This document shows positions 446 through 58,818 of a DNA stretch of 64,000 bases, piece by piece. The position numbers and the translations under genes were made by a program. The notes under the pieces are model-generated. The model saw nothing but the letters and a program-made list of their open reading frames with translations, ran no database searches and was not told the DNA's origin. Numbering within the stretch: position 1 is the first letter of the stretch; each line of letters opens with the position of its first letter. Origin of the DNA: an uncultured Pseudobdellovibrionaceae bacterium. Its GTDB lineage: Bacteria > Pseudomonadota > Alphaproteobacteria > Micavibrionales > Micavibrionaceae. The DNA lies in assembly GCA_964348795.1 (NCBI GenBank), contig CAYGDY010000005.1:12027-76026 (forward strand), read 5' to 3'.

Positions 446-522
446 GTCATCGCGAGGCTACGTATGTAGCCGTGGCGATCCAGATAAAAGAACTGGATTG
501 CTTCGCATGCGCTCGCAATGAC
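446..522. repeat. MITE-like palindromic element, family A (GTCATCGCGAG...CTGGATTGC...CTCGCAATGAC)
   Basis: Termini gtcatcgcgag / ctcgcaatgac are inverted repeats. Inner gatccag-loop-ctggattgc hairpin. Same design recurs at 7592, 9371, 24878, 26899, 31914 and 51642. Confidence 0.85.
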
Positions 523-534
523 GGGCTTGAAGGT

Positions 535-1464
535 CTACGCCTTCCCCGTCCATTCCGGAACGGCTTGGAACAGGTCCGCGACAAGGCCGTAATCGGCAAC
601 CTGAAAGATCGGCGCGTCAGGGTCCTTGTTAATCGCCACGATGACTTTGGAGTCCTTCATGCCCGCCAGATGCTGGATCGCGCCGGAGATCCCGACTGCG
701 ATGTAAAGATCCGGCGCAACGACCTTACCCGTTTGCCCGACTTGGCAATCATTGGGTACAAACCCCGCATCCACGGCGGCACGAGAGGCCCCGACAGCGG
801 CTCCGAGCTTGTCGGCCAGCGCCTCGATGATTGAGAAATTCTCCTTCGAGCCTACGCCGCGCCCGCCGGAGACTACGATTTTGGCCGCCGTGAGTTCGGG
901 GCGTTCAGAGAGTGCGGCTTCTGTGGAAAGATAACGGGACAGGCCGCTCTCGCCCTTGTCTGCGATCGTTTCAATCGGCGCATTGCCGCCTGTGGCGGGG
1001 GCGGGGTCAAAGTTTGTACCCCGCACGGTGAGGCAGATGACGGGATCCGAGGATTGCACGGTGGCAATCGCATTGCCGGCATAGACAGGGCGTTCAAAAG
1101 TTCGAGCGTCAATCACTTTTGAAATATCGGAAATCTGCTGTACGTCCAGCAAGGCCGCCGCGCGAGGCAGGATATTTTTGCCATATGTGCCGGACGGCGT
1201 GAGGAGATGGGTATAGTGTTTCCCAAGCTCGGCTAGCAGGGGCGCGATATTTTCCGCCAGCCCGTGCGCCAGAGCAGGGGAATTTGCGTGCAGAACCTTT
1301 GTTACGGCGGGAATTTGGCTCGCTTGCGTGGCGACAGCGTGGGCGTTATGCCCCGCGACAAGGACGTGTATCTCCCCGCCAATGGCAAGGGCGGCCCCGA
1401 TAGTGTTCAGGGTCGAGGGCTTGAGGCCTGTGTTGTCATGTTCGGCGAGGATAAGGAGGGTCAT
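535..1464 (-). CDS. etfA: electron transfer flavoprotein subunit alpha
   Basis: 309 aa. N-terminus [11 protein letters not shown] and a C-terminal FAD-binding region ([37 protein letters not shown]) typical of EtfA. Directly downstream of etfB. Confidence 0.95.
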
Positions 1465-1523
1465 GCGTTTCTTCCTTGTATTATAATGTTTTTAAACCAC
1501 CAAGGCACAAAGTTTTCTCTGTT

Positions 1524-1630
1524 GTCATTCTGAGTGAAGCGAAGAATCCCGCAAACCATAGAAAGAGATCCTTTACTGCGTTCAGGATGACAGAAAAAAG
1601 ACTGGATTGCTTCGCTTTGCTCGCAATGAC
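1524..1630. repeat. Composite palindromic element: complete family C unit (1524-1591) plus family A right half (1602-1630)
   Basis: gtcattctgagtgaagcgaagaatcc...gatcctttactgcgttcaggatgac is followed by ctggattgcttcgctttgctcgcaatgac. Lies between etfB stop and etfA start. Confidence 0.8.
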
Positions 1631-1643
1631 GATTTTATTCATC

Positions 1644-2408
1644 CTAAATCACCTTCGCTTCGTGTTTGAGTTTATCGATGAGTTCGTCAATGGAGGACAC
1701 TTTCCCGCCGCCCTTGCGCACAGGGGGTTCCTTTACGGAGAGGAGCTTCAATCGCGGGGTGTAGTCCAATCCTAGCGCGGAAGGCTCCAGAATCTCAAGC
1801 GGCTTTGATTTGGCCTTCATAATATCGGGGAGCTTGGCATAGCGGGGCTCGTTCAGGCGCAAATCCGTGGTCACAATGGCCGGTAAATTGAGGGAGAGCG
1901 TTTCCAGCCCGCCATCGACCTCCCGCGTGACCGTGGCGGTGGTCCCTTCAACGACAAGTTTCGAGGCAAACGTCCCTTGCGCCCAGCCGAGCAAGGCGGA
2001 GAGCATTTGTCCCGTCTGGTTGGAATCATCGTCGATGGATTGCTTGCCCATCAGGATCAGGTCCGGCTTTTCGCGCTCTGCGATGATTTTGAGGGTCTTG
2101 GCGACCATGAGCGGCTCCACCCCGCCCAGATCAATCGGCAGGTCTGTTTTGATTAAGACCCCGCGATCGGCCCCCAGTGCCATGGCGGTGCGGAGCTGTT
2201 CCTGCGCCCTTTCAGGGCCGATGGTGACCACGATGATTTCCGTGGCCTTGCCGGATTCCTTCAGGCGCACGGCTTCCTCCACCGCGATTTCATCGAACGG
2301 ATTGATCGACATTTTGACGTTGGACAGATCCACGCCCGTTTGATCGGCTTTGACGCGGAGTTTCACGTTATAATCAAGGGCGCGCTTGAGGGGGACAAGG
2401 ATTTTCAT
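1644..2408 (-). CDS. etfB: electron transfer flavoprotein subunit beta
   Basis: The ORF-track frame extends to 2474. Start chosen at [19 protein letters not shown] (ATG 2408), the canonical EtfB N-terminus. 254 aa. Confidence 0.93.
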
Positions 2409-2661
2409 GGGATTTTCTAAGGGCTGTTGTTTGACACTGGAATCGTTTTTAGCACAGAGTTTGAAGAAAAACAAACGCTCCCCCTGTGTCTCACATGAGA
2501 AAGCGCTCTACGAAAACATTTCCTGCAATATTACCATGTCCATTCTTCATCATCAAAGGTGTTTGGTGTTATGTCTGTAAGGGATTCGGCCGGTGTCTTC
2601 TCAGCCACCGCAAATGCCTTTTCCCAGTTCTGGCGTGGCTTTGGTGTGGATGAGGGCATGT

Positions 2662-2865
2662 TTAATGCCCCGAAGACAGGTACGCCAAGGCAAACAGCGC
2701 AAAGGCAAGCCCCTGGAGGATCACGCGGGCGCGCATCAGTGTATTGCCGTATTTTTTGTTGAATTCCCCGCCCTTCATCATGGCGTATACGCCAAGCCCC
2801 AGCACGCCCAAAACGGCGATCATGGCAAGGAGGGTGAGGATCATCATGGTTTGGGTCATCATCAT
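2662..2865 (-). CDS. twin transmembrane helix small protein (HIG1-domain like)
   Basis: 67 aa with two hydrophobic helices separated by MKGGEFNKKYGNTLMRARV. Resembles the alphaproteobacterial HIG_1_N family. Confidence 0.65.
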   Translation of the reverse strand: MMMTQTMMILTLLAMIAVLGVLGLGVYAMMKGGEFNKKYGNTLMRARVILQGLAFALFALAYLSSGH

Positions 2866-2909
2866 AAAGGGAGAGAGGGTTTGCTGTTACAGGTGTCTCC
2901 CTTTAAACA

Positions 2910-3143: not shown

Positions 3144-3242
3144 GTGAAGGGGCTCCCTGTTATTTTTGATAGTAATAGGGTATTATAGTGTATAAAAAAT
3201 GTCAAGATAATATTTTATGAAAATAAAATATTATCCCCTCCT

Positions 3243-3316
3243 GTCATTGCGAGCCATAGCGAAGCAATCTAGTTTTTTCTGGACTGCCACGGCTCCTTAC
3301 GGTGTCTCGCGATGAG
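3243..3316. repeat. MITE-like palindromic element, family A (degenerate right end)
   Basis: gtcattgcgagccatagcgaagcaatctag...ctggactgcc...ctcgcgatgag. Confidence 0.7.
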
Positions 3317-3333
3317 GAGAAGGGAGGATTGCT

Positions 3334-4044: not shown

Positions 4045-4096
4045 GCTTTGGATGTTACAGGCTCTTTTGGGATGAAGTCGAGGGATTTTTAAGACC

Positions 4097-6337: not shown

Positions 6338-6365
6338 ATCATGTGTATAACGTGTTGCCTTCTTT

Positions 6366-6452
6366 GTCATGCCTGCGAAAACAGGGCTCGTTCTTGTCTG
6401 AGTGGGCTCAGATCTCTGCTTTCGCAGAGATGAGAGGGAGGGCGCAGATGAC
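6366..6452. repeat. MITE-like palindromic element, family E (GTCAT...ATGAC termini, unique interior)
   Basis: gtcatgcctgcgaaaacagggc ... ctgagtgggctcag atctctgctttcgcagagat ... gcgcagatgac. Two internal perfect hairpins. Confidence 0.6.
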
Positions 6453-7572: not shown

Positions 7573-7591
7573 TCGTACAAATGCGGGATTC

Positions 7592-7680
7592 GTCATTGCG
7601 AGGAAGCCTTAAGGGCTGACGAAGCAATCCAGATAATAAAACTGGATCGCCACAGCCTCTGAAGGAGGCCTCGCGATGAC
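7592..7680. repeat. MITE-like palindromic element, family A
   Basis: gtcattgcgaggaagcc...ctgacgaagcaatccag-loop-ctggatcgcc...cctcgcgatgac. Sits between prfA and prmC. Confidence 0.85.
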
Positions 7681-7741
7681 GGTGCCAAAGTGCAGGGTTT
7701 GTCATTCAAGCACCCCATAACACCTTGAAACTGGAAACGCC

Positions 7742-9276: not shown

Positions 9277-9309
9277 TAAAAAACCGCTTTTTTAAAAGGC
9301 GGTTTTTTT
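9277..9309. terminator. bidirectional rho-independent terminator candidate
   Basis: aaaaaaccgc tttttt aaaaggcggttttttt: GC stem flanked by an A-run and a T-run, downstream of the DUF4167 gene. Confidence 0.55.
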
Positions 9310-9370
9310 GACTTTTGTCATTGAAAGCCGTTTGCGGGGTTATATATAGTCGTTTAAGACAGTTCACTTC

Positions 9371-9447
9371 GTCATCGCGAGGCCCTGCAAAGGGCCGTGG
9401 CTTTAAAAACTGGATTGCCGCGCTCCCTTGTGGTCGCTCGCAATGAC
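9371..9447. repeat. MITE-like palindromic element, family A
   Basis: gtcatcgcgaggccctgcaaagggccgtgg...ctggattgccgcgc...gctcgcaatgac. Confidence 0.85.
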
Positions 9448-9456
9448 GGAGTCTTA

Positions 9457-9485
9457 TTTGAAATAACTACATATATCCCTTATAT
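9457..9485 (+). promoter_or_regulatory. sigma-32 (RpoH)-like promoter candidate for clpB
   Basis: TTTGAAA (9457-9463), a 13-nt gap, then CCCTTATAT. The -10 part CTTATAT (9479-9485) fits the alphaproteobacterial RpoH -10 CYTATNT. It lies about 30 nt upstream of the clpB ATG. Confidence 0.4.
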
Positions 9486-9513
9486 GCCGTATTGTTGTTG
9501 AGAGAGGCCCCTG

Positions 9514-12138
9514 ATGAATTTCGAGAAATTTACTGAAAAAACAAAGTCTTTTGTGCAGTCCGCCCAGACTCTGGCGGCGCGGCATTCCCACCAGTCGATC
9601 GAGCCGGAGCATTTGCTGAAAGCCATGCTGGAGGATCCGGACGGGCTGGTGCAGAAGGTGCTGAAAATCGCGGGGGTTGACCCCGCACGGCTCAAGCGGG
9701 ATGTCGAGACGGCAATTGCCAAATTTCCGGTGGTGGAAGGGGCGGGCGCGGGGCAACTCCGTATTTCAACTGATTTTATAAAGACGGTCGATAGCGCTTT
9801 GAATGTAGCTGAAAAAGCAGGAGATAAATACGTCACAGCAGAGCGGGTTTTGCAGGCCATGCTGATGGCGCGGAAAATGGAAATTTCAGGCCTTCTGGAG
9901 CGGGCGGGCCTGAAGGACACGGTCCTCAATCAGGCGATCAATGACATGCGCAAGGGTCGCACCGCTGACAGCCCCAGCGCGGAAGATCAGTTCGACGCCC
10001 TCAATAAATACGCCCATGACCTGACGAAGGCCGCGCAGGAAGGGAAAATGGACCCGATTATCGGGCGGGACGAGGAAATCCGCCGGACGATTCAGGTGCT
10101 GTCCCGCCGGACAAAGAACAATCCGGTCCTGATCGGGGAGCCTGGCGTAGGGAAAACGGCCATTATCGAAGGGCTCGCGCAACGGATTATCAATGGGGAC
10201 GTGCCCGAGAGTCTCAAAAACAAACGCCTGATGTCGCTCGATCTGGGCGCGATGCTGGCGGGGGCGAAATATCGCGGAGAGTTCGAGGAACGCCTCAAAG
10301 CCGTGCTGGACGAGGTTAAAGCCGCCACGGGCGAGATTGTCCTGTTTCTGGACGAACTGCATACACTGGTGGGCGCGGGCAAGGCGGAAGGTGCAATGGA
10401 TGCGGGCAATATGCTCAAACCCGCGCTGGCACGGGGCGAACTCCATATGGTTGGGGCTACAACGCTGGATGAATACCGCAAACATATTGAAAAAGATGCG
10501 GCGCTGGCGCGGCGCTTCCAGCCGGTTTTCGTATCTGAACCAACAGTTGAAGATACGATATCTATCCTGCGGGGATTAAAGGAAAAATATGAATTGCATC
10601 ATGGGGTGCGGATCACCGACAGCGCGATTGTCTCTGCCGCCACACTGTCCCACCGCTATATTACGGATCGTTTTTTGCCCGACAAGGCGATTGATCTGGT
10701 GGACGAGGCGGCCTCCCGCATCCGCATGCAGGTTGATAGCAAACCCGAAGCCCTGGACGAGCTGGATCGCCGGATTGTCCAGCTGAAGATCGAACGCGAA
10801 GCCTTGAAGAAGGAAAAGGATAAAGCCTCTCAGGAGCGTTTAAAGGCTCTGGAAGTTGAACTGAAATCTCTGGAATCGCGCTCTGCGGATATCACGGCGC
10901 AATGGCGGGCGGAAAAAGAAAAGCTCAATGTGGGCCAGAAATATACCGAGGCGCTGGATCAGGCGCGCAGTGCGCTGGAACAGGCCGAACGCGAAGGGAA
11001 CTGGGCCAAGGCCAGCGAATTGAAATACGGCAAGATTCCGGAGCTGGAGGGCAAGATTGCGGCCTCGGGCGGTGCGTCCGTGCAGGTGGAGGGCGCTACG
11101 CGCTCGAACCTGATCAACGAAGAGGTGACGGAAGATGATATCGCTAGCATTGTGAGTCGCTGGACGGGTGTGCCTGTTGACAAAATGCTCGAAGGGGAGC
11201 GGGACAAGCTCTTGAAAATGGAAGAAAAGCTTGGACAGCGTGTGGTGGGGCAGACCGAGGCCGTGGTGGCGGTGTCCCATGCCATTCGTCGTTCGCGGGC
11301 AGGCCTGCAGGACCCGCGCAGGCCCATGGGCTCCTTTTTGTTTCTGGGGCCGACAGGTGTTGGGAAAACGGAGCTGACGAAGGCACTGGCGGAATTTATG
11401 TTTGACGATGATACGGCGCTGGTCCGGCTGGATATGTCTGAATATATGGAAAAGCACAGCGTGTCGCGCATGATCGGCGCCCCGCCAGGCTATGTGGGGT
11501 ATGAGGAAGGCGGCGCGTTGACGGAAGCCGTGCGCAGGCGCCCTTATCAGGTGGTGCTGTTCGATGAAATCGAAAAGGCGCATCCGGATGTGTTCAACGT
11601 GTTGTTGCAGGTGCTGGACGACGGACGCTTGACGGACGGGCAGGGGCGCACGGTGGATTTTAGTAACACGCTGTTGATCATGACCTCTAATCTTGGTGCG
11701 GAATATCTGGTAAACCAGCCGGACGGCGCGGATGTGGACGCAGTGCGGGAAGAGGTGATGGAGGTCGTCCGCAGGGCTTTCCGGCCTGAATTCCTGAACC
11801 GTCTGGATGAAATTTTACTCTTCAAGCGGCTGGATCGAAGCCAGATGACGGGCATTGTCGAGATTCGTTTGCAATACTTGCGGGATCTGCTCAAGGACCG
11901 GCATGTGACGCTCGATATCGGGGACGATGCAAAAGTCTGGCTGGGTGATAAGGGGTATCAGCCGGCGTATGGCGCACGGCCCCTGAAACGGGTCATTCAA
12001 ACAGAACTGCAAAACAGGCTGGCGGAGATGATTTTGCGCGGCGATGTGCAGGACGGCGCGGTGGTCAAGATTTCCGTCAGGGGCGGCGCCCTGGATTTTG
12101 CCGTGAAAAAGGCGGAGAGCGTGAAATCTGCGGCGTGA
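9514..12138 (+). CDS. clpB: ATP-dependent chaperone ClpB
   Basis: 874 aa. Two AAA+ modules ([10 protein letters not shown] and [10 protein letters not shown] Walker A motifs) with a long coiled-coil middle domain. Confidence 0.97.
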
Positions 12139-12149
12139 GGCGCATGGTC

Positions 12150-12259
12150 GTCACCCCCGCTTTTATGCGGGGGTCCGTAAAAAAGAGAGCGGCAAAGCCG
12201 CTCATGCCCCTGGATCCCGTGTATGCGAGTTTTGCTTTGCAAAACGCTCACGGGATGAC
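12150..12259. repeat. MITE-like palindromic element, family B (GTCACCCCCGC...CACGGGATGAC)
   Basis: gtcacccccgc ttttat gcgggggt ... aaaaaagagagcggcaaagccgctc ... ggatcccgtg ... cacgggatgac. A near-copy lies at 20999-21127. Confidence 0.85.
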
Positions 12260-12383
12260 GAAGAAGATGGTGGGATGACTTGGGCCCTGCGCAGACGGTC
12301 CATTGCATTACCCTGTAATTTCTAGTACCTTGTAGGGGATAGCTCTTTCGGGCTGTTCTCACCTTCGTTCTTCATCCGGACCC

Positions 12384-13067
12384 ATGTCACACCGTTTTTT
12401 GCCACGCTCTGTTTTGCTCCTGCTCCTCTTCCTGACGGGGTGCGCTTCCGTGTTTGATGGGGCAACGCAGGATGTCAAATTTGAAACGCCCGGGGCGCAG
12501 GATGCCTTGTGTTACGCCTATGTGGAGGGTACGAAATATCTGGTGCGCCCCCCCCAGACCATCAATTTGTATAAATCCGGCCATGATATCACGGTGGATT
12601 GTCAGGCCCCCGGAAATCGCCGGAAGAACAGCGTTGTCGCACCCGCCCTCGCGGGGACTACGGCGTGGAATGCGATGAATGCGGGGGTCGGGGCGGGCTG
12701 GGACTATGCTTCCGGCGCGATGTTCCGGTATCCGGACGTGATTACGATTGATTTTACCGGTATGCCGCTTTTGGATTCCGCGCTTCCCGCGCAGAATAAT
12801 CCCGATATCCGCCCGCCTGATTCCTATGATCTCGAAGAGTTTTTACCGGCTGTGCCCCGCATGAACGCGGACAAGTACAAGGAAGAGGTTGTGCCGCTCA
12901 AACGCCAGAAAAGCGGGGCTGTGCCGGTGGGAAATGAGGGCGGCGCGGAGGCCTTTACAGAAGGGCCAAAGGGCCCCGACAAGGGGGACCTGCAAAGCGT
13001 GATCAAGGCGCTCAATCCGTCTGACACCTCCACACGCAAGCCGACATCGCTTCTGCCCGGGCAGTGA
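12384..13067 (+). CDS. hypothetical lipoprotein
   Basis: Signal peptide with lipobox LLLLLFLTGCASV. 227 aa. Confidence 0.6.
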   Translation: MSHRFLPRSVLLLLLFLTGCASVFDGATQDVKFETPGAQDALCYAYVEGTKYLVRPPQTINLYKSGHDITVDCQAPGNRRKNSVVAPALAGTTAWNAMNAGVGAGWDYASGAMFRYPDVITIDFTGMPLLDSALPAQNNPDIRPPDSYDLEEFLPAVPRMNADKYKEEVVPLKRQKSGAVPVGNEGGAEAFTEGPKGPDKGDLQSVIKALNPSDTSTRKPTSLLPGQ

Positions 13068-13074
13068 TTTCATC

Positions 13075-13113
13075 GTCATCGCTTCGTTGGCCTTAAGGCC
13101 ACCTCGCAATGAC
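13075..13113. repeat. Minimal 39-bp GTCAT...ATGAC palindromic element
   Basis: gtcatcgcttcgttggccttaaggccacctcgcaatgac: family-A-type ends around a single ggcc-ttaa-ggcc hairpin. Confidence 0.6.
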
Positions 13114-13123
13114 GATGTTGTTG

Positions 13124-13984: not shown

Positions 13985-14000
13985 AAATTATCCCTTTGTT

Positions 14001-14057
14001 GTCACCCCCGCCGCTTGCCGTAGGCACGCTTAATTCGCAAAAGACCAACGGGATGAC
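14001..14057. repeat. Family B palindromic element, shortened form
   Basis: gtcacccccgccgcttgccgtaggcacgcttaattcgcaaaagaccaacgggatgac. Confidence 0.75.
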
Positions 14058-14075
14058 GCTCAGAGGGGCTGTTTT

Positions 14076-18335: not shown

Positions 18336-19127
18336 TTACTGATAAGCCTGTCCGAGTTCATAAAGGGCCATGCAATCCTGCAGGGCGGCTTGGGAGGCCT
18401 TGTCGAAGGCCTTGCTTTGCATGAGGCTTCCCAAGGGGTCCAGATCCTTGACATTGCGGCGCAGGGCGCCTTCGATGACTCGGGGCCCGCGTTCCTTCAT
18501 AAATTTTCCCATTTCATCCCCGAGGCATTCGCATACGCGGTTGGCGTGTTTCAGCCCGTTTCGGACTTTCGGGTCGCCCATGCATTGATCAAGGATCAGG
18601 GCTTTGGTGGGGTGTTCCATACACGGCGCATAGACAAACATCATCATCCGGCTTCGTTGCAGGTCGCCTTCGGCGGTGCTGGTCGCCATGGCCTGCAACT
18701 GGGGGATGGTCATGGCCTCCGGCAACTTGGCCGCCGTACAGCCACACAGTAATTTGAGAGACTCCCCCTTGAGAATCGGGTGGTCCTGCGCCATACAGTT
18801 TTTGTAATAGGCGTTGGAGAAATCCTTCATACTGGAGGGTGGTGGTGTATTTTCCGCAGGCTTTGCTGGAATGTCTTCCAGTTCCGGCACATCTACAACG
18901 GGCGGGGTATTTTGGGGGGGGATCTGCGCGGACTTGGGGCGCACGAAAATGTCTGCGGCGTGTGCTGATTCTGGGGCAAGGAGTAAAAAGAGGCACAGGA
19001 GAAAAACAAGAGGCGCGGCTTTGACGCTTGCGTTCTTTGGATCCCGTTTGTGCAAGCGCTCCCAAAGGGAACGCGCCAACGGGATGACAGGAAGGTGTGA
19101 ATGGATGACGGGGTGTGATGATGTCAT
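18336..19127 (-). CDS. hypothetical secreted Cys-rich protein
   Basis: Signal-like segment [21 protein letters not shown], a Pro-rich linker, then an 8-Cys domain. ATG at 19127 (GTG at 19142 would overlap the gatA stop). Located between gatA and gatB. Confidence 0.6.
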
Positions 19128-19138
19128 CTTTTTGCTCC

Positions 19139-20626
19139 TCACGCCGCCTTTTTTAAAAGTGTCTGGGGTATGGCTTTGAAATCAGCCGCAATCTCGAGGG
19201 AACGTCCGATGTTAAAGACCGTTTGCTCGTCCCATGCCTTACCTAAAATCTGCAAACCCAAAGGCAGGCCCCGCGCATCCAGCCCTGCAGGGACCGACAT
19301 GGCCGGAATGCCTGCCAGATTGGCCGTGACGGTAAAGACGTCGTTCAGGTACATCTTGATTGGGTCATCTTCATTTTCACCGATGGCAAAGGCGCCGGAC
19401 GGCGCGGTCGGTGTCAAAATCGCATCGCAGGTCTCGAAGGCTTTTTCAAAATCCTGCAGGATCAACCGGCGGACCTTTTGCGCCTTGATATAGTACGCAT
19501 CGTAATAGCCGGCGGACAACACATAGGTGCCGATCAGAATCCGGCGTTTGACTTCCTCCCCGAACCCTTCGGCGCGGGTTTTGGTGTACATGTCATTGAG
19601 TGTGCCTTCGGCCTTGCTCCGGTGCCCATAGCGCACCCCGTCATAGCGGGCGAGGTTGGAGGAGGCCTCTGCCGGCGCAATGATGTAATAGGTCGGCAAG
19701 GCATATTTCGTATGGGGCAGGGAGATGTCTACGATCTCGGCTCCGGCCTCTTTCAACCAGCGGATGCCGTTTTGCCAGAGGGTTTCAATCTCGGCAGGGA
19801 TGCCCTCCAGCCGGTATTCCTTCGGAATGCCGATTTTGAGGCCCTTGATGTCACCGGTGAGGGCTTTGGCAAAATCAGGGACGGGGAGGTTGGCGGATGT
19901 GCTGTCCATCGGGTCATGCCCGCTCATGGATTGAAGCAGGAGCGCACAATCTTCCACCGTACGGGCAATCGGGCCCGGATGGTCGAGGGAGGACGCGTAG
20001 GCAATCACGCCCCAGCGCGAACAGCGCCCATAGGTGGGTTTGATCCCCGCAAGGCCGCAGAAGGACGCAGGTTGGCGGATGGAGCCGCCCGTGTCGGTGG
20101 CTGTGGCCCCCATGGCAATGCGGGCAGACACTGCAGAGGCTGAACCGCCGGAGGAGCCGCCCGGGACGAGATCCTTGCCATCGCTGGCGTGCCAAGGGTT
20201 GATGACATTGCCGAATGCGCTGGTGGTGTTGGAGGAGCCCATGGCAAACTGGTCCAGATTGGCCTTGCCCAGCATCACCGCGCCGTCATCGAACAGTTTG
20301 CGGGTAACGGTGGATTCATAGCGCGGGATAAAGCCCCGCAAAATGTTGCTGGCGGCGGTGGTTTGCACGCCGTCCGTGCAGAACAGATCCTTGATGGCCA
20401 GTGGAATGCCGTCCAGCAGGCCGGTTTGCGCGCCCTTGGCTCTGCGGGTGTCGCTGTCTTGCGCTTGTTTGATGGCAATCTCCGGTGTTTCCACAATATA
20501 GGCGTTGAGAGCCCGTGCCTTTTCCATGGCGGACAGGTGATCTTGCGTGAGCTCTACGGCAGAGAATTGTTTTTTCTCCAGTCCGGTAAGGGCTTCGGCG
20601 ATTGTCAGGTGTGTCAGTGTGCTCAT
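19139..20626 (-). CDS. gatA: Asp-tRNA(Asn)/Glu-tRNA(Gln) amidotransferase subunit A
   Basis: 495 aa. Amidase signature [11 protein letters not shown]. Confidence 0.97.
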
Positions 20627-20919: not shown

Positions 20920-20998
20920 TTTATGGTGTCTTTCTTGTGTAGGTGTTATCTTGCATCGGTGTTATATAGTCGCTCTATAAGAAAAATAGTTCTCAATC

Positions 20999-21127
20999 GT
21001 CACCCCCGCCGCTTGCCGCATGCAAGCTGAAAGTGCGGGGGGGCCAGTAATGTGAGCCGTTTACGGCTCTCTTTTTTCTGGATCCCGTGCGTGCGAATTT
21101 TGCTTCGCAAAATGCCCACGGGATGAC
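20999..21127. repeat. MITE-like palindromic element, family B (full length)
   Basis: gtcacccccgccgcttgccgcatgcaagc...gcggggggg...gagccgtttacggctctctttttt ctggatcccgtg...cacgggatgac. Confidence 0.85.
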
Positions 21128-21188
21128 AGGTCAGGGGGCAGGTTTTATTCTTTAAACGACTATTCAATATAGTTTTTAGCATTATAGG

Positions 21189-22470: not shown

Positions 22471-22518
22471 GTCGTTTGAAAGTGTGAATTTTTCTTCGCA
22501 AAAGACCAACGGGATGAC
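22471..22518. repeat. Family B element, right-half fragment
   Basis: ...tttttcttcgcaaaagaccaacgggatgac matches the right arm at 14030-14057. Confidence 0.6.
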
Positions 22519-22525
22519 GGAAGAC

Positions 22526-24749: not shown

Positions 24750-24877
24750 GAAGAAAATCCTTGTGGCGGGCGTGTGACCAAGACGGGTTTGTCTTTGTTT
24801 TTATATGAGGGTATCATACAGGAAAAAAAAGGAGTCTGGAATGGATTCTTGTGGGTTATAATTGTGACCGTTCTATC

Positions 24878-24960
24878 GTCATCGCGAGGCTCGGGCAAGA
24901 GCCGTGGCGATCCAGAAAAACTGGATTGCTTCGTCAGCCATGCGGCTTCCTCGCAATGAC
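24878..24960. repeat. MITE-like palindromic element, family A
   Basis: gtcatcgcgaggctcgggcaagagccgtggcgatccag-aaaaa-ctggattgcttcgtcagccatgcggcttcctcgcaatgac. Confidence 0.9.
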
Positions 24961-24962
24961 GG

Positions 24963-26479: not shown

Positions 26480-26538
26480 TTGACATATTTTTCAGTGGCA
26501 TGTATTTATGTTTAATTGCAACAGGAGAGGCGCGTACT

Positions 26539-26718
26539 ATGGTAGACAAGATTACAGGCAAATTTGAAGACAATGCCACGGTTGTTGTGCCGGACCAAGA
26601 AACATTGGGGACGATTTCTCAAGTCAAAACTGTTCCCGAGGCGATAAAGTCTGAAGGGAAATACAGCTTGCTGGATAATTTTGGTGATTTTTACGGGATG
26701 AAACTGGATCTGGAGTAA
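26539..26718 (+). CDS. hypothetical small protein
   Basis: 59-aa ORF (MVDKITGKFEDN...) with aggagagg 8 nt upstream of the ATG. No motif recognised. Confidence 0.3.
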   Translation: MVDKITGKFEDNATVVVPDQETLGTISQVKTVPEAIKSEGKYSLLDNFGDFYGMKLDLE

Positions 26719-26741
26719 AGGTTCCACCAAAGGCTTGTAAC

Positions 26742-26811
26742 GAGAGCGGCAAAGCCACTCACCTTGCTGGGCCCCCGCATTATGACACGCTTCGCGTGTG
26801 ACGGGGGTGAC
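26742..26811. repeat. Family B element fragment, rearranged
   Basis: gagagcggcaaagccactc ... gcccccgc ... gacgggggtgac. Same modules as 12150-12259 but in a different order and orientation. Confidence 0.6.
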
Positions 26812-26898
26812 GAGGGAGAAGGGGCCTTGAGTTTGCTTGATGGTTTTTAGGATTTTGAGGATGTACAGCCTGTCCCAAATAAAATGATTCATATTTCC

Positions 26899-26988
26899 GT
26901 CATTGCGAGCGACCATAAGGGCGCGCGGCAATCCAGAGTTTCTTTTTTCTGGATTGCTTCGTCAGCCATACGGCTTCCTCGCAATGAC
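26899..26988. repeat. MITE-like palindromic element, family A
   Basis: gtcattgcgagcgaccataagggcgcgcggcaatccag...ctggattgcttcgtcagccatacggcttcctcgcaatgac. The right half is nearly identical to 24929-24960. Confidence 0.9.
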
Positions 26989-27070
26989 GATTTTATGACC
27001 TAAAGGCTTCTTGCTCGCACTTGAAAAGTTTGCTATGGCATGCTCTAAAGAAAGAAATCCTTGGAATATC

Positions 27071-31901: not shown

Positions 31902-31913
31902 AGTCTACGGATC

Positions 31914-31998
31914 GTCATTGCGCGGAAGCCAATAGGGCTGACGAAGCAATCCAGTTTTTCTGGATCGCCACGGGCTTTTAAAAAGCCCTCGCGATGAC
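31914..31998. repeat. MITE-like palindromic element, family A
   Basis: gtcattgcgcggaagccaatagggctgacgaagcaatccag-ttttt-ctggatcgccacgggcttttaaaaagccctcgcgatgac. Confidence 0.9.
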
Positions 31999-32054
31999 AA
32001 TGTCATGTCATTTTCCCTTCCCTTCCTTTCCTGCCTCCGCTATAACTCCCCCTT

Positions 32055-38514: not shown

Positions 38515-38796
38515 ATGTATGTTTATATTTTGGCAAGTGATTACAACGGAACGCTTTATGTCGGTATGACATCGGATTTAAAGAAAAGAATTTGGGAGCA
38601 TAAAGAAGAGGTTTGCGAAGGTTTTACAAAGAAATACGACGTTAAAAATCTGGTGTATTTTGAGGTGCTGGATGATCCAGAAAATGCAATAAAACGTGAA
38701 AAACGCCTGAAGAAATACACAAGACAAGCCAAAATAAAGCTGATTGAACAAAATAACCTAGAGTGGAAAGATTTGTACGAAGAAATATGCAAATAA
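38515..38796 (+). CDS. GIY-YIG nuclease family protein (small URI-domain type)
   Basis: MYVYILASDYNGTLYVGMTSDLKKRIWEHK...KREKRLKKY: GIY...YVG motif, conserved R and E. Visibly AT-rich. Confidence 0.85.
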   Translation: MYVYILASDYNGTLYVGMTSDLKKRIWEHKEEVCEGFTKKYDVKNLVYFEVLDDPENAIKREKRLKKYTRQAKIKLIEQNNLEWKDLYEEICK

Positions 38797-38808
38797 TATT
38801 GGGGTATG

Positions 38809-38902
38809 GTCATTCCCCGAATTTGCAACGCAAATTCTAGGGGAATCCATAAAATTAAAGGTGGATCGCCCTAGAATTTCTTTCAGAAATTCAGGCGATG
38901 AC
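38809..38902. repeat. MITE-like palindromic element, family D
   Basis: gtcattccccgaatttgc-aacg-caaattctaggggaatcc ... ggatcgccctagaatttc-tttca-gaaattcaggcgatgac. Shares only the GTCAT/ATGAC ends with the other families. Confidence 0.75.
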
Positions 38903-38920
38903 GAAACAAGAAAGAAAAAC

Positions 38921-48027: not shown

Positions 48028-48097
48028 TCTCCAAAACTCCGAGTCTCCGCTTGAATTTTTTGGGGTTTGTTTTAAGCGGAGTTTAGGAGATACGGAG
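48028..48097. repeat. Cassette junction J0: L-arm (3x CTCC at 8-nt phase), 17-nt spacer, R-arm (3x GGAG at 8-nt phase)
   Basis: tCTCCaaaaCTCCgagtCTCCgcttga / attttttggggtttgtt / ttaagcGGAGtttaGGAGatacGGAG. Confidence 0.8.
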
Positions 48098-48122
48098 TTT
48101 TTTGTAGGAGCGGGCTGTAAAA

Positions 48123-48239
48123 ATGAAAATCGGAGAAATTGTTAAGATCCATATACCTGAAATTATTCGGTATTGTGAAGAAGTTGATCCACAGGAGTTT
48201 ATTCGTTTTAAAACTCCAAAACTCCGAGTCTCCGCTTGA
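48123..48239 (+). CDS. 38-aa ORF inside the tandem unit (copy 1), coding status doubtful
   Basis: MKIGEIVKIHIPEIIRYCEEVDPQEFIRFKTPKLRVSA*. The last 9 codons and the stop lie in the L-arm. Could be a gene fragment. Confidence 0.2.
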   Translation: MKIGEIVKIHIPEIIRYCEEVDPQEFIRFKTPKLRVSA

Positions 48240-48282
48240 ATTTTTTGGGGTTTGTTTTAAGCGGAGTTTAGGAGATACGGAG
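48210..48282. repeat. Cassette junction J1 (L-arm, spacer, R-arm)
   Basis: Identical to J0 apart from the extended 5' aaaactcc. Confidence 0.8.
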
Positions 48283-48307
48283 TTTTTTGTAGGAGCGGGC
48301 TGTAAAA

Positions 48308-48424
48308 ATGAAAATCGGAGAAATTGTTAAGATCCATATACCTGAAATTATTCGGTATTGTGAAGAAGTTGATCCACAGGAGTTTATTCGTTTTAAAACT
48401 CCAAAACTCCGAGTCTCCGCTTGA
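48308..48424 (+). CDS. 38-aa ORF inside the tandem unit (copy 2), coding status doubtful
   Basis: Identical to 48123..48239. Confidence 0.2.
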   Translation: MKIGEIVKIHIPEIIRYCEEVDPQEFIRFKTPKLRVSA

Positions 48425-48467
48425 ATTTTTTGGGGTTTGTTTTAAGCGGAGTTTAGGAGATACGGAG
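48395..48467. repeat. Cassette junction J2 (L-arm, spacer, R-arm)
   Basis: Identical to J1. The last GGAG(G) of the R-arm sits 7 nt upstream of the GxxExxY ATG and can serve as its Shine-Dalgarno. Confidence 0.8.
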
Positions 48468-48475
48468 GTTTTTAT

Positions 48476-48907
48476 ATGGCACTTTTGAAACAGCATTCTG
48501 ATTTTCCAGACTCTTTGAATGTTTTAACGGGCGAAGTGATGGATTGTTTTTATCAAGTTCATCAGGAGTTGGGTGCCGGTTATACTGAAAATATTTATGA
48601 GGAAGCCTGTTGTATTGAGTTTCAGAGGAAGGGGCTTTCTTTTGAAAAACAGAAATCTATACCGATTTTTTATAAGGGAGAGGTACTGAATAACAATTTC
48701 AGACTAGACCTTGTTGTAGAAAATGAAATTTTGATTGAATTGAAAGCCGTAGAACATGTTTTACCTGTTCATCAGGCGCAAATATATTCTTATCTTAAGG
48801 CCACAAAATACCCGATTGGCTTTTTAGTGAATTTCAATGTGTCGTTGATTAAAGAGGGCGTAAGACGCTACGTGAATAAAACTCCGAAACTTCAAAACTC
48901 CGCTTGA
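48476..48907 (+). CDS. GxxExxY protein (PD-(D/E)XK nuclease-fold family)
   Basis: 143 aa. GYTENIY (GxxExxY) motif and a D...E.K-like block RLDLVVENEILIELKAV. AT-rich. The C-terminal KTPKLQNSA* is encoded by the L-arm repeat. Confidence 0.8.
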   Translation: MALLKQHSDFPDSLNVLTGEVMDCFYQVHQELGAGYTENIYEEACCIEFQRKGLSFEKQKSIPIFYKGEVLNNNFRLDLVVENEILIELKAVEHVLPVHQAQIYSYLKATKYPIGFLVNFNVSLIKEGVRRYVNKTPKLQNSA

Positions 48908-48949
48908 GTTTTTAATATGGCATTAAAGCGGAGCTTGGGAGATACGGAG
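48878..48949. repeat. Cassette junction J3 (diverged L-arm, 15-nt spacer, R-arm)
   Basis: aaaaCTCCgaaaCTTCaaaaCTCCgcttga / gtttttaatatggca / ttaaagcGGAGcttgGGAGatacGGAG. Confidence 0.75.
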
Positions 48950-49058
48950 GTTTTTTGCTCCCAGATCAAAAGAAGCGCCCTGTAGGCTCTATAAAATTTT
49001 TTATAATTGTTTTAGATATTGATGGATAAGAAAAAATGTTGGGTTGTGATATGAATTT

Positions 49059-49084
49059 CTCCGAATCTCCAAAACTCCGCTTAA
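49059..49084. repeat. Terminal L-arm J4 (no partner R-arm), abutting the fabI RBS
   Basis: CTCCgaatCTCCaaaaCTCCgcttaa. Its reverse complement ttaagcGGAGttttGGAGattcGGAG matches the R-arm at 24 of 26 positions. Confidence 0.8.
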
Positions 49085-49104
49085 AAAAATAAAGGTAAAA
49101 TAAA

Positions 49105-51465: not shown

Positions 51466-51641
51466 GGTACCAATTCGTTTTCTTTGTGTGAGGGCGTTGC
51501 CCATCGGTTTCGCCGTGCTCATGTACGAAAAGGTACATGCCGCGCGTCTCGCCTCCGGACGCCTGCTCACACTTTGAAACCAAAATGGTACAAGATGTGC
51601 TTTTATACGGAACCGTGCAGAAGGTAAAGGGTATAAAAATC

Positions 51642-51733
51642 GTCATTGCGAGGAGGCTTTAGCTGACGAAGCAATCCAGACAAGTAAAACAAAAACTGGA
51701 TTGCCGCGCGCCCTAATGGTCGCTCGCAATGAC
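51642..51733. repeat. MITE-like palindromic element, family A
   Basis: gtcattgcgaggaggctttagctgacgaagcaatccag...ctggattgccgcgcgccctaatggtcgctcgcaatgac. Confidence 0.9.
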
Positions 51734-51755
51734 GGAAATCTGAAACATTCTTAGC

Positions 51756-53001: not shown

Positions 53002-53018
53002 GGTGTTTTCCTGTTTCT

Positions 53019-53101
53019 GTCATTCTGAGCGGAGCGAAGGATCTCTTTCGGGATTCTTCGCCTTTGGCTCAGAATGACAAAGGAAGGGGGCTCAGAATGA
53101 C
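53019..53101. repeat. MITE-like palindromic element, family C, with duplicated right terminus
   Basis: gtcattctgagcggagcgaaggatc...gattcttcgcctttggctcagaatgac (to 53078), then aaaggaagggggctcagaatgac (to 53101). Confidence 0.85.
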
Positions 53102-53114
53102 ATGAGAGAGTGCG

Positions 53115-55944: not shown

Positions 55945-55971
55945 TGAAAAATCTCATAGAGGGTGCCTTAC

Positions 55972-56592: not shown

Positions 56593-56625
56593 AATGATTG
56601 TAAGGCTCAAGGGAGGGCTTGGATC

Positions 56626-57021
56626 ATGCGGCAGATATCGGGTATGCATGTCGTTGTGGCGTCTTTAAGCCTTCTGTTTTTTGCCTATTTCTATTTTTCA
56701 GGCTATCAGAAGAGCGGCTTGTCGTCTTTCGGGATGTATCTGTTCTATCAATTCGAGTTCGGGAAGCTCAGTCCCAACCAGCTTTTGTTTTGGACGTCTG
56801 TCTTCAGTCCCTTGTTTTTGATGTTTCCGTATTTCTGGGAGCGTCTATTTTCGTTTCTCAAGCGGCCTTCGAGCGGGGAGCCCCTGTTGGATGTCGGGAA
56901 TATTATCGGTCTGGGGTATTTGTTCCTTTTAGTCTTTGTCTTGCTGACCTTCCCGGGCGTAAGAGACGGTATTCAACCGCCAAGAACACGCGGACCTTTG
57001 GCTTCGGAGGCTGTGCGGTAG
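56626..57021 (+). CDS. hypothetical membrane protein
   Basis: 131-aa ORF with 3-4 aromatic-rich hydrophobic segments. Preferred over the overlapping frame 56619..57125. Confidence 0.35.
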   Translation: MRQISGMHVVVASLSLLFFAYFYFSGYQKSGLSSFGMYLFYQFEFGKLSPNQLLFWTSVFSPLFLMFPYFWERLFSFLKRPSSGEPLLDVGNIIGLGYLFLLVFVLLTFPGVRDGIQPPRTRGPLASEAVR

Positions 57022-57033
57022 GGGGGGAAGCCA

Positions 57034-57062
57034 TAAAAAAGAGAGCCGCTTCGCGCGGCTCA
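57034..57062 (-). terminator. rho-independent terminator of rpsO
   Basis: Minus strand: gagccgc-gcgaa-gcggctc followed by tctttttt. Resembles the gagagcggcaaagccgctc module of the family B repeats. Confidence 0.7.
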
Positions 57063-57085
57063 TCTTACGGGATGACGTTTTTTTG

Positions 57086-57355
57086 TTACCGTCTGATATT
57101 CAGGCGCTTGATAAGCGTCTGGTAACGGGATTCATCCTTGCGTTTCAGGTAATCCAGCAATTTACGGCGTTTTGCCACCATGGCCAGAAGGCCGTGACGG
57201 GAGTGGAAATCCTTTTTATGGGCATCCATGTGACCTGACAGATAGGCAATGCGGTCTGTCAGGAGGGCGACTTGTACTTCGGGGGAGCCTGTGTCCCCTG
57301 GTTTGGTTGCAAAATCTGCTACGATTTTGGCGCGGTCTTCTACGGTCGTCGACAT
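57086..57355 (-). CDS. rpsO: 30S ribosomal protein S15
   Basis: 89 aa. ...[38 protein letters not shown]... is canonical S15. Confidence 0.97.
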
Positions 57356-57376
57356 CGGTTTTCTCCTGTTTCTTTT

Positions 57377-58318
57377 CTAAAGGTTGAACACGCGAACGGG
57401 TTTGATTGTGGCGCCTTCGGTTTCAACCAGAGCGACAGGGCGGGCATGTAAAACCGCCAGAGCCATTCCGTGTTGTTCCAGCCCTAGCGCCTCTAAACGG
57501 GCAAAATCGGGTCTGGAAATGAAGGACAAAACCTGCCCGTTCCGAAGCCTTGCACATTCGCCCTCTTTTATGGCCAGAGCCGGGATGTCGTCCAGCACGG
57601 TCTCAAGAGGATGCAAAACCTCGTCCAAAACATCTGTCATGGAAGCGGCACCTTGCACAAGTTTTTCCAGTTTGTCCAGAGATATTGCATTTTTTTCTGT
57701 AAACGGGCCGACCTGTGTGCGCCGGAGGGCTGAAATATAGCCGCAGGTGCCGAGCCTCTCGCCCATATCCCGTGCCAGAGAACGGACATAGGTGCCCTTG
57801 CCGCACAGCATCGTAAAACTGGCGGTCTCTGGTGTGGTGTGGTCAAGGGTCAGGGTTTCGATATAGACGGTGCGGGGCGCAATTTCGAGCGTTTCGCCCG
57901 CACGTGCCAGATCATACGCCCGCTGTCCGTCAATTTTGATGGCTGAAAAATCGGGCGGAATTTGGTCAATTTCGCCGATGAAGCGGGGCAGAGCGGCGGT
58001 AATGGCCTCGGGCGTGGGGCGAACGGGTGATGTGGCGATGATGTCGCCCTCGCTGTCCTCCGTATTGCGGCGTTCCCCCCATGTGATCGTAAATTCATAG
58101 ATTTTGAGGCGGTCCTGCGCAAAGGCGATGGTTTTGGTGGCTTCGCCGAGCGCAATGGGTAAAATCCCGCTCGCCAGCGGATCGAGCGTGCCCGCATGGC
58201 CCGCCTTTTGAGCCTGAAGAAGCCAGCGCACCTTGGCAAGGGCCTGCGTGGAGGTCGGGCCCACGGGCTTGTCCAGCACGACCCAGCCGTCGATTTTTTG
58301 TCCTTTTTTTCGTGCCAT
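57377..58318 (-). CDS. truB: tRNA pseudouridine(55) synthase
   Basis: Start taken at MARKKGQKIDGWVVLDKPVGPTS (ATG 58318). Catalytic GHAGTLDPLASGILPI. Confidence 0.93.
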   Translation of the reverse strand: MARKKGQKIDGWVVLDKPVGPTSTQALAKVRWLLQAQKAGHAGTLDPLASGILPIALGEATKTIAFAQDRLKIYEFTITWGERRNTEDSEGDIIATSPVRPTPEAITAALPRFIGEIDQIPPDFSAIKIDGQRAYDLARAGETLEIAPRTVYIETLTLDHTTPETASFTMLCGKGTYVRSLARDMGERLGTCGYISALRRTQVGPFTEKNAISLDKLEKLVQGAASMTDVLDEVLHPLETVLDDIPALAIKEGECARLRNGQVLSFISRPDFARLEALGLEQHGMALAVLHARPVALVETEGATIKPVRVFNL

Positions 58319-58322
58319 AGGG

Positions 58323-58727
58323 TCAGGAACCCATGTCTTCTTCGGAGATGTGAATGTCCCGCAAAATGTCTTCGATCCGTTGGGCCTTGTCAAAGGAATC
58401 GTCCTTGACGAATTGGATTTTCGGCGTGAATTTGAGGGCAGACTGGCGGTTGATTTCCTTCTGGAAGATGTGGGCTTCCGCCGCAAGGGCCGTGAGAAGG
58501 GGGGCGATATCCGCACCGCCCAGTGCTACGACATAGGCTCTGGCGTGTTTGAGGTCTGGGGAGACGCGCACTTCCGTCACGGTGATGTTTTTGGCCATAT
58601 CGAGCAAAGGGGCTGTGTGGAAATGTCCACGCTGAAGCGTTTCGGCGATAATATGCCGGAGCTGTTCCCCCACGCGGAGCTGGCGCTGGGACGGGGTATT
58701 GGTTGTGGCGCGGTGTTTTTGTGTCAT
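58323..58727 (-). CDS. rbfA: ribosome-binding factor A
   Basis: 134 aa. QRQLRVGEQLRHIIAETL...VTEVRVSPDLKHARAYV. Confidence 0.9.
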   Translation of the reverse strand: MTQKHRATTNTPSQRQLRVGEQLRHIIAETLQRGHFHTAPLLDMAKNITVTEVRVSPDLKHARAYVVALGGADIAPLLTALAAEAHIFQKEINRQSALKFTPKIQFVKDDSFDKAQRIEDILRDIHISEEDMGS

Positions 58728-58751
58728 GGTTTTGTTGTTTCTTGGTTATTC

Positions 58752-58818
58752 GTCATCCTGAGGCGAAGCCGAAGGATCCCTGTTGTCAAAGGAGATCCTT
58801 CGCGGTGCTCAGGATGAC
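58752..58818. repeat. MITE-like palindromic element, family C
   Basis: gtcatcctgaggcgaagccgaaggatccc-tgttgtcaaa-ggagatccttcgcggtgctcaggatgac. Lies between infB and rbfA. Confidence 0.9.

Follow-up and report, generated by a model that had tools for sequence, protein, structure and literature searches.

In this work, we describe a population of short palindromic repeats scattered over a 64 kb stretch of DNA from an uncultured Pseudobdellovibrionaceae bacterium (contig CAYGDY010000005.1, referred to below as the window), together with a small nuclease-type gene, at 38515-38796, which adjoins one of them. The window has 54% GC and is about 12% non-coding; its ClpB finds its best record match at 88% identity, and the nearest named relatives are uncultured Alphaproteobacteria, Rhodospirillales and Micavibrio metagenome-assembled genomes (MAGs). 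A first-pass annotation, made from the letters of the window, had listed about 20 palindromic elements as strictly intergenic, strongly self-complementary and framed by common GTCAY...RTGAC ends, around at least five unrelated interiors. The described sequences are all present and lie in the non-coding fraction, dispersed, one per intergenic region; the only doubtful case as to extragenic location is a unit which that list had missed, at 19038-19089 on the minus strand. The shared termini are likewise real, being one base longer than reported, (C/T)GTCA...TGAC(G/A). The interiors are not unrelated: across the families they follow a single unit plan, made of a (C/T)GTC tag, a stem usually starting with AT, a variable loop, the closing stem and a CC(A) tail. 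Hairpin units of this type were located at 19 intergenic loci. The palindromes begin with GTCAY and end with RTGAC because they consist of two units placed head-to-head, with the tags pointing outward: 14 such dimers are found in the window, and no tail-to-tail one.

The simple terminus pattern GTCAY-N(25-55)-RTGAC gave 10 matches against 4.5 expected, and was too loose; a structural detector was therefore used instead, requiring YGTCAY, a perfect stem of at least 5 bp beginning at the A, and a CC tail. This strict detector recognized 23 units in the window, against 0.44 ± 0.68 (maximum 3) in 100 dinucleotide-preserving shuffles of it, so that the termini, suspected from the outset to be more than a by-product of hairpin bases, exceed chance about 50-fold. 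The tag is CGTC in 15 of the 23 units and TGTC in the other 8; outside this set, the left unit of family D carries GGTC and the unit of element E carries TCTC. The stem starts with AT in all units but one, the left unit of family B, which starts with ACCCCCGC, and the tail is CCA in 18 units, CCC in 4 and CCG in 1. Among 11-12-mers, GTCATYGCGAG occurs seven times in the window, and CTCGCRATGAC nine times.

Four families, A to D, were recognized, while element E, formerly counted as a family of its own, is a degenerate composite. Units of family A have the form CGTC-ATYGC-(GAG...GAA or GTG)-GCRAT-CCA, and those of family C the form (C/T)GTC-ATYCT-(GAG...GA)-AGRAT-CC, the two having in common the layout GTC-AT(YSY)-GAG...GA-(RSR)AT-CC. 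Families B and D are two-unit heterodimers, CGTC-ACCCCCGC-ttttat-GCGGGGGT-CCG plus CGTC-ATCCCGTG-(27 nt)-CACGGGAT-CCA in the former, GGTC-ATTCCCC-(hairpin)-GGGGAAT-CCA plus CGTC-ATCGCC-(hairpin)-GGCGAT-CCA in the latter, which is the rarest family in the window. Stems are 8 bp long in B, with loops of 6 and 27-29 nt, and 6-7 bp long in D; A and C units have an outer stem of 5 bp and loops of 11-24 nt with inner hairpins. Taking A, C and D units together, outer stems measure 5-7 bp and loops 11-25 nt, usually holding a second hairpin. Loops of the family A type, collected from the window and from other loci, amount to 130 distinct ones among 239 units; the commonest short loop is GAGCGNAGCGAA, and 43 of 99 long ones are more self-complementary than their shuffles at the 5% level. 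One family A subtype of the window has a constant flanking GAGG...CGTG-GCGAT, but an inner stem that is entirely different from copy to copy (CTAC/GTAG, CCTC/GAGG, GCTTTT/AAAAGC, CCCT/AGGG). The motif GCGAAGC, a classic, very stable DNA mini-hairpin that would fit a structure formed at the DNA level, recurs in the loops.

Seventeen elements were folded as single-stranded DNA and compared with 200 shuffles each. Strong self-complementarity, attributed earlier to the whole set, was found in 11 of them, with z-scores from -3.5 to -8.1 and no shuffle folding as well; it was marginal (z about -2.1 to -2.4) for element E (6365) and the short copies at 9370 and 13074, and not significant for the degenerate copies at 1523, 3242 and 14000. 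Each element of families A and C forms a single long branched hairpin, each of B and D two separate ones.

Head-to-head heterodimers of family A lie at 445-523 (CGTC-ATCGC..GCGAT-CCA at 445-482 on the plus strand and CGTC-ATTGC..GCAAT-CCA at 494-523 on the minus strand; z -3.9), between convergent genes whose stops are 9 and 11 nt away, at 7591-7681 in the RF1-PrmC spacer (z -6.3), at 24877-24961 (z -3.6) and at 31913-31999 (z -4.3); further head-to-head dimers of this family occupy 26898-26989 (z -7.8) and 51641-51734 (z -4.8). In the family A dimer at 9370-9448 the left unit is truncated (z -2.3), and the one at 3242-3316 is degenerate, its right tag being mutated to CTC and its left tail to CTA (z -0.9). 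Family C includes head-to-head dimers at 58751-58819 (z -7.4) and at 53018-53102, where the dimer proper (53018-53079) is followed by an extra partial end, GCTCAGAATGACA, at 53091-53102 (z -8.1), as well as a degenerate dimer at 1523-1592, with units TGTC-ATTCT..AGAAT-CCC and TGTC-ATCCT..AGGAT-CTC (z -1.3). Family B heterodimers, also head-to-head, are located at 12149-12263, with a spacer hairpin between units that fold separately (z -6.2), and at 20998-21128, between the divergent GatC and RuvX genes (z -5.8). The only family D element, a head-to-head heterodimer, lies at 38808-38903 (z -6.3). Element E, at 6365-6452 (z -2.1), comprises a decayed TGTC-ATGCCTGC unit, a spacer hairpin, a minus-strand unit and a right-end CGTCATCTGCGC remnant; the only recognizable unit, read directly, is the minus-strand TCTC-ATCTCTGC-GAAA-GCAGAGAT-CTG.

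Short and half copies are either single units or products of internal deletion. To the former belong a family A unit, CGTC-ATTGC-gagcaaagcgaa-GCAAT-CCA, on the minus strand at 1603-1631, 12 nt beyond the stop of the gene at 1644-2474; a family B half on the minus strand at 22471-22519, between convergent genes, which retains the end of the right-hand unit, ...CAACGGGATGACG; and, on the minus strand at 26742-26812, a directly read family B left-type unit (CGTC-ACCCCCG...GCGGGGG-CCC) with a GCGAAGC-centred loop hairpin and the B spacer hairpin, but without its partner. The unit at 19038-19089, found by the strict detector, is a single one of the family B type, TGTC-ATCCCGTT-(29 nt)-AACGGGAT-CCA. 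It falls within the first 35 codons, an N-terminal extension, of a mechanically called open reading frame (ORF) at 18336-19142 on the minus strand, which has no Pfam match: either the true start codon lies downstream, or this is an intragenic repetitive extragenic palindromic (REP) sequence, as reported for Rickettsia. Among the deletion products, the single family A-type hairpin at 13074-13114 has a tag at both ends (CGTC-ATCGC...GCAAT-GACG; z -2.4), and by its sequence looks like a dimer collapsed through internal deletion; in the family B derivative at 14000-14058 the start of the left unit is joined to the end of the right one.

Recurrence of the elements beyond the window had been set beforehand as a test, and was found. 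Runs ERR3094292 and ERR3094302 contain short-read (Logan) contigs of this organism that have 100% identity to the window; three of them match 9434-12649 (L001), 495-1626 (L205) and 495-1602 (L206) and start or stop inside family A units, L001 starting within the 9370 element and L205 ending within the 1603 unit, as is expected of a high-copy repeat. A search for the exact 24-base arms of family A, CTGGATTGCTTCG-N4-30-CTCGCAATGAC, returned at least 120 loci in more than 110 species of many phyla. Most are Alphaproteobacteria (Bradyrhizobium, Sphingomonadales, Rhodospirillales, Rickettsiales), with exact matches in Bradyrhizobium repeats and in a Rickettsia endosymbiont genome; the other hosts are Gamma- and Betaproteobacteria, Bacteroidales, Spirochaetaceae, Opitutaceae, Melainabacteria, Bacillota and Parcubacteria MAGs, some of which could be explained by MAG contamination. 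All-against-all clustering of 4,857 ORFs from these loci, carried out in search of a transposase near family A units, found none enriched, the clusters being made of ABC transporters, short-chain dehydrogenases, sigma-54 activators and similar large paralogue families. Rfam at gathering thresholds recognized only two tRNAs over the window, and no family on any element; full-text literature searched for the sequence GTCATTGCGAG yielded unrelated primer lists only.

The position of the elements relative to genes was evaluated for 21 of them, on a gene list curated in this analysis. Flanking genes are unidirectional in 16 cases, convergent in 3 and divergent in 2, and the 3' end of a gene lies within 27 nt of 14 elements. 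Such figures agree with RNA-level hairpins of 3' untranslated regions, stopping exonucleases or transcription and kept by selection on the host genes, with no dedicated protein partner: the hairpins are stable and would form in RNA too, and many REPs have been argued to be transcribed (Di Nocera et al., PMC3733652). This explanation appears improbable to us, since selection for structure only would not keep an unpaired GTC tag, a CC tail and exact 24-base arms across phyla. A T-run follows none of the elements, no Rfam family matches them, two lie between divergent genes, and the orientation of heterodimers has no consistent relation to the direction of transcription, though cases are few. Moreover, SsnA, a Neisseria nuclease considered below, does not bind RNA (PMC11893778).

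Site occupancy could be compared in three contigs, L122 (ClpB 88% identical), L123 (84%) and L124, which keep the order RF1-PrmC-DUF4167-ClpB-hypothetical gene and the downstream peptidase M17, the metallophosphatase and NlpC genes in between being kept only in part. Even the nearest of them is too divergent for base-level junctions, and the comparison therefore concerns occupancy only. At five sites occupied in the window, no REP unit is found in L122 or in L124. The 7591 and 12149 elements are absent at the orthologous sites of all three contigs, and the 9370 element in L122 and L124; at the site of element E the spacer of the relatives is 43-47 nt long, against 170 nt in the window. The convergent stops on either side of the 41-nt element at 13074 are separated by 56 nt in the window and by 5 nt in L122, and the two genes flanking the 14000 element overlap in L122. 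REP site occupancy is thus polymorphic among syntenic relatives, which bears out the insertion polymorphism that the first-pass annotation had made a condition of its proposal; gain in the lineage of the window is the simpler reading, because two outgroups are empty. Closer strains were sought with the L28 protein and the gene at 62981-63607, which have no record matches, and the other matches are short contigs of the same organism.

Two observations were made alongside this comparison. L123 contains, at 10061-10128, a textbook CGTC heterodimer, CGTC-ATTGCACGG-cttgt-CCGTGCAAT-CCA plus CGTC-ATCACACGC-cccgt-GCGTGTGAT-CCA, with 9-bp stems, 5-nt loops and CCA tails, sited elsewhere than the window elements; related genomes thus carry different unit families at different sites. 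After the DUF4167 gene of the window, at 9278-9312, lies a hairpin resembling an intrinsic terminator, with flanking A and T runs (AAAAAACCGCTTTTTTAAAAGGCGGTTTTTTT), separate from the REP found 60 nt further on; an equivalent hairpin, and no REP, is found at the matching place in L122 and L124.

Dimer geometry was analyzed in a census of 360 units, drawn from the window and from 124 loci elsewhere. CGTC is the tag of 257 units and TGTC of 64, and the tail is CCA in 284. Head-to-head dimers (110) largely exceed tail-to-tail (12) and tandem (10) ones, and their flanks define the consensus Y-C-GTC...GAC-G-R. Small size, terminal inverted repeats, polymorphic sites and internally deleted copies (13074, 14000) would all be found in ordinary miniature inverted-repeat transposable elements, that is, deletion derivatives of an insertion sequence (IS) whose DDE-type transposase recognizes GTCAT terminal inverted repeats in double-stranded DNA. 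We find this explanation hardly credible: a target-site duplication, sought at the flanks of the 110 head-to-head dimers, was not seen, the only feature being the palindromic Y-C...G-R extension. Furthermore, units occur singly as well, and widely; in B and D dimers one end forms a different hairpin from the other, instead of the two making up a single inverted repeat; and no transposase is associated with the repeats in the at least 120 loci around family A units.

The statement that the window contains no transposase is literally true, but it overlooked a gene of a cognate type. The plus-strand gene at 38515-38796 is predicted to encode a 93-aa single-domain GIY-YIG nuclease (Pfam PF01541, E 2.2e-14, residues 1-73), and is referred to here as ssn-type. 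It forms an island of 34% GC between neighbours of 50% and 58%, and starts 8 nt past the upstream stop; the family D dimer begins 11 nt after its own stop codon. A metagenome scan with the protein provided 221 relatives, of which 80 loci were kept. The 79 aligned homologues are 91-96 aa long, and the window protein keeps all residues conserved in at least 90% of them, except for one Leu-for-Pro change in the NP.W motif; conserved columns include Y4, Y15, R25, H29 and E62, of which Y4, Y15 and E62 would match Y6, Y17 and E64 of SsnA, by position only. Relatives in PDB are weak, being the minimal GIY-YIG proteins 1ywl and 1zg2.

The homologous genes are typically located between two outward-tagged units. 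By the strict detector, 45 of the 70 evaluable homologues have a correctly oriented unit in the 90 nt upstream, and 53 out of 71 have one in the 160 nt downstream, against a background of 0.26 units per kb on both strands of the same loci; a flanking inverted repeat scoring at least 14 was found in 33 of 54 non-redundant homologue loci and in none of 142 shifted controls. Stem types include ATCGCCCGG, ATGCCCCGC, ATCGTCCGC, ATTCCCGC and ATCCCCGC. One homologue, 66% identical (L169), is flanked by both unit types of the window D dimer; family A-type units, TGTC-ATTGC-GAGG...GCAAT-CC, are found on the flanks of a set of homologues (L172-L203); in three homologues (L173, L175 and L177, 62-66% identical) the flanks are within one mismatch of NTS, the Neisseria repeat recognized by SsnA. 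As a separate observation, in a group from GC-rich soil contigs (L126-L168; for instance L128, L134 and L140) the gene often has one unit upstream and a full head-to-head heterodimer (ATGCCCCGC, ATCGTCCGC) downstream, so that one gene may be surrounded by three different hairpin types; the spacers beside these units carry an inverted repeat of their own, CCAGTATCCCAGAGGC...GCCTCTGGGATACTGG.

The first-pass annotation had advised looking through the genome for IS200/IS605, RAYT-type or other transposases. In the REPIN-RAYT systems, with which the work of Bertels and Rainey in 2011 and of Nunvar in 2010 is associated, GTAG-tagged hairpins reportedly flank a Y1 transposase gene, located between units. 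The likeness is close: short-tagged hairpins in inverted pairs, intergenic and polymorphic between relatives, with hundreds of gene-less copies and a single-copy nuclease-type gene between two units. REP doublets moved by a RAYT (a Y1 HUH transposase of the IS200/IS605 type) whose gene lies in another part of the genome would account for this layout, and yet they are a very improbable source of the present elements, whose tag is CGTC or TGTC and not GTAG. The gene embedded in such dimers encodes a GIY-YIG nuclease, not a Y1 HUH transposase; no transposase family is enriched in the at least 120 loci around family A units; and no RAYT or other Y1 transposase was found among the part of the window ORFs that was scanned. 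In the survey by Di Nocera et al., no tyrosine transposase was flanked by CGTC units in any species (PMC3733652). A GIY-YIG single-strand DNA nuclease is the likelier enzyme.

Unit anatomy, enrichment, dimer geometry, site polymorphism and the association of gene and repeats are all observed features, and the explanation that we regard as highly probable is that the elements are CGTC-tagged REPs equivalent to Ssn-related motifs (SRMs), with a Ssn-type GIY-YIG nuclease as the likely partner. Ssn proteins are GIY-YIG proteins of about 94 aa, forming a widespread family (CDD cd10448), and SsnA of N. meningitidis binds and cuts NTS exclusively in single-stranded form, cleavage being confined to the tagged strand and falling a few bases 5' of the motif; the GTC 5' of the palindrome governs cleavage, and the C just 3' of it governs binding (Chenal et al. 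2025, PMC11893778). The earlier idea of one trans-acting activity reading the ends was thus right in kind, since the conserved positions are those controlling SsnA cleavage and binding; several paralogues are likelier than a single activity.

By analogy with the Neisseria enzyme, a unit would fold when its DNA becomes single-stranded, as on the lagging-strand template or in incoming transforming or conjugating DNA. A nuclease of the Ssn family would then bind the hairpin, reading the stem sequence and the C after the stem, and would nick the hairpin-bearing strand itself, a few bases 5' of its GTC; the single-strand-specific binding and cleavage are carried over from the literature. The enzyme encoded at 38515-38796 is probably active and would prefer D units, the D dimer being its probable cognate site. 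Families A, B and C probably depend on paralogues encoded outside the window, or on cross-specificity, and gene-less dimers are probably non-autonomous relatives of repeat-ssn-repeat cassettes.

Gene-less dimers were gained or lost recently, because syntenic relatives lack them. Since head-to-head tags lie on opposite strands, nicks are predicted just outside each dimer end, a geometry that would lend itself to excision or copying. A Y1 HUH transposase, which passes through a covalent intermediate, is able to rejoin DNA, whereas we know of no joining activity in a hydrolytic GIY-YIG nuclease; any mobility would therefore need host repair or replication. That gene-less head-to-head dimers are active non-autonomous cassette derivatives, moved or copied via GIY-YIG nicks by a route that differs from those of HUH, DDE and serine or tyrosine recombinases, seems to us rather unlikely, and is put forward tentatively; the hypervariable, self-complementary inner hairpins of family A might be the scar of such a movement, for instance of fold-back repair synthesis. 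If cassette mobility were true, long-loop unit types would mark new Ssn specificities, and a family larger than counted.

Various points weigh against assigning the repeats to CGTC REPs and SRMs with a Ssn partner. To our knowledge, Ssn enzymes have been demonstrated in no experiment to move or copy repeats. The window ssn gene is bordered by a dimer only at its 3' side and, unlike most homologues, lacks an upstream unit, which suggests a rearranged or partly decayed cassette; furthermore, this enzyme adjoins the rarest family, D, while the abundant A, B and C are without an enzyme in view. No ssn homologue was found by tblastn across the at least 120 family A loci (0.86 Mb), as expected for a single-copy gene, and this search gives no support. 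The placement just after stop codons would also fit a role at the RNA level, which may coexist, as a side effect, with the Ssn explanation. In families A and C, stems of 5 bp and loops of 11-24 nt depart from the 8-9 bp and 4-5 nt typical of published CGTC families, for which exceptions are listed (PMC3733652), families being compared here by description. The SRM pattern HGTCWYN(0-2)YYVSBRHN(0-5)WNVSBRGN(0-2)RNCYNB has no match on either strand of the window (shuffle mean 0.27), and no window sequence is within one mismatch of NTS. The pattern misses the window units because it assumes short loops, and it matches only 27 of 81 loci holding homologues of the window Ssn; the units are SRM-like, and not SRMs by the literal 2025 pattern. 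Finally, the published criterion of Ssn membership is a length below 150 aa with either a blastp match to SsnA (CAX49033.1) at E<1e-10 and 75% cover, or cd10448 as top CDD match (PMC11893778), while the present assignment relies on the Pfam match and the conserved residues, with the NTS-like flanks of homologues as a surrogate.

A second repeat system, not related to the first, was observed at 48029-49085, where a hairpin module of about 75 nt (AAAACTCCGAGTCTCCGCTTGAA...TTTAAGCGGAGTTTAGGAGATACGGAGTTTT) is present four to five times, with a 185-bp tandem duplication. The modules bracket a gene at 48476-48907, of 37% GC in the 54% GC window, encoding a 143-aa PD-(D/E)XK protein of the 'GxxExxY' type (PF13366, E 8.5e-41; TIGR04256, E 1.6e-41). 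Its only homologue among the fetched loci, 43% identical, belongs to a Prevotellaceae contig (L117), where it is flanked by a 57-nt inverted repeat made of short direct repeats; relatives sought in viral contigs were not found, nor was any literature on a GxxExxY gene between hairpin repeats. The layout, a small nuclease gene between hairpin repeats, parallels repeat-ssn-repeat, in two cases.

The finding amounts to a known repeat superfamily that is densely represented in one uncultured alphaproteobacterium. As the published SRM pattern misses its long-loop unit types (no match against 23 units), the reach of Ssn-repeat systems is probably underestimated. Four or five coexisting families, one ssn gene and empty sites in relatives make this a compact test case for Ssn-driven repeat spread, and every additional pairing of an enzyme with its hairpin is a candidate sequence-specific cutter of single-stranded DNA, a use proposed in PMC11893778. 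The repeats matter for annotation as well: REPs fragment short-read assemblies, and several mechanically called ORFs, 436-834 and 26512-26931 among them, include element sequence and may be spurious.

The elements, deemed earlier not assignable to a named family, can be compared with two sets of published repeats. Chenal et al. (Nat Commun 16:2388, PMC11893778) described NTS, a 28-nt Neisseria repeat (CGTCATTCCCGCGMAVGCGGGAATCYRG), and called its relatives elsewhere SRMs; Alphaproteobacteria, among them Sphingomonas, Rickettsia and Wolbachia, are rich in these, many repeat types pairing with many enzyme variants. SsnA lowers transformation by NTS-bearing DNA, a role shown only in Neisseria, and the NTS-ssnA-NTS layout was noted as IS-like, mobility being only proposed (PMC11893778). 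The window shares with this system the GTC 5' and the C 3' of the hairpin, and a single-domain GIY-YIG gene of about 94 codons beside or between repeats; it differs in that its gene has repeats on one side only, and its enzyme and unit types are known from sequence.

The other set is the superfamily of CGTC-tagged REPs, with families CGTC-1 to CGTC-4 (Di Nocera, De Gregorio & Rocco 2013, BMC Genomics 14:522, PMC3733652). These have a CGTC tag (with TGTC and CCTC as variants), a stem starting with AT and a tail that is mostly CCA; they form predominantly head-to-head homo- or heterodimers, tail-to-tail and tandem pairs being rare, with spacers of 20-100 bp, sometimes structured, and are found in intergenic regions, after ORFs, between unidirectional or convergent genes, mostly in Alphaproteobacteria and with several families per genome (PMC3733652). 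Tag, AT stem, CCA tail, head-to-head dimers, hairpin spacers, location, a genome with multiple families and the lack of a transposase are all as in the window, and the census of 360 units gives proportions like the published ones. The comparison with Rickettsia made in the first-pass annotation was well founded, since the Rickettsia palindromic elements (RPEs) RPE-4 and RPE-6 have been placed in this superfamily, together with the dRS3/NTS-type repeats of Neisseria (PMC3733652). RPEs often lie inside genes and are translated, and Neisseria units, as in the dRS3/NIME arrays, are clustered in large mosaics, whereas the window copies are dispersed and, with the doubtful exception already mentioned, extragenic. 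Variable loops have been noted for Bradyrhizobium CGTC-1, for two CGTC-3 sets and for some GTAG families (PMC3733652), and the loops of the window are the extreme of a known variation, not a new kind. The phenomenon is already covered by Di Nocera et al. in 2013 and Chenal et al. in 2025; what stands out here is the unusually elaborate loops.

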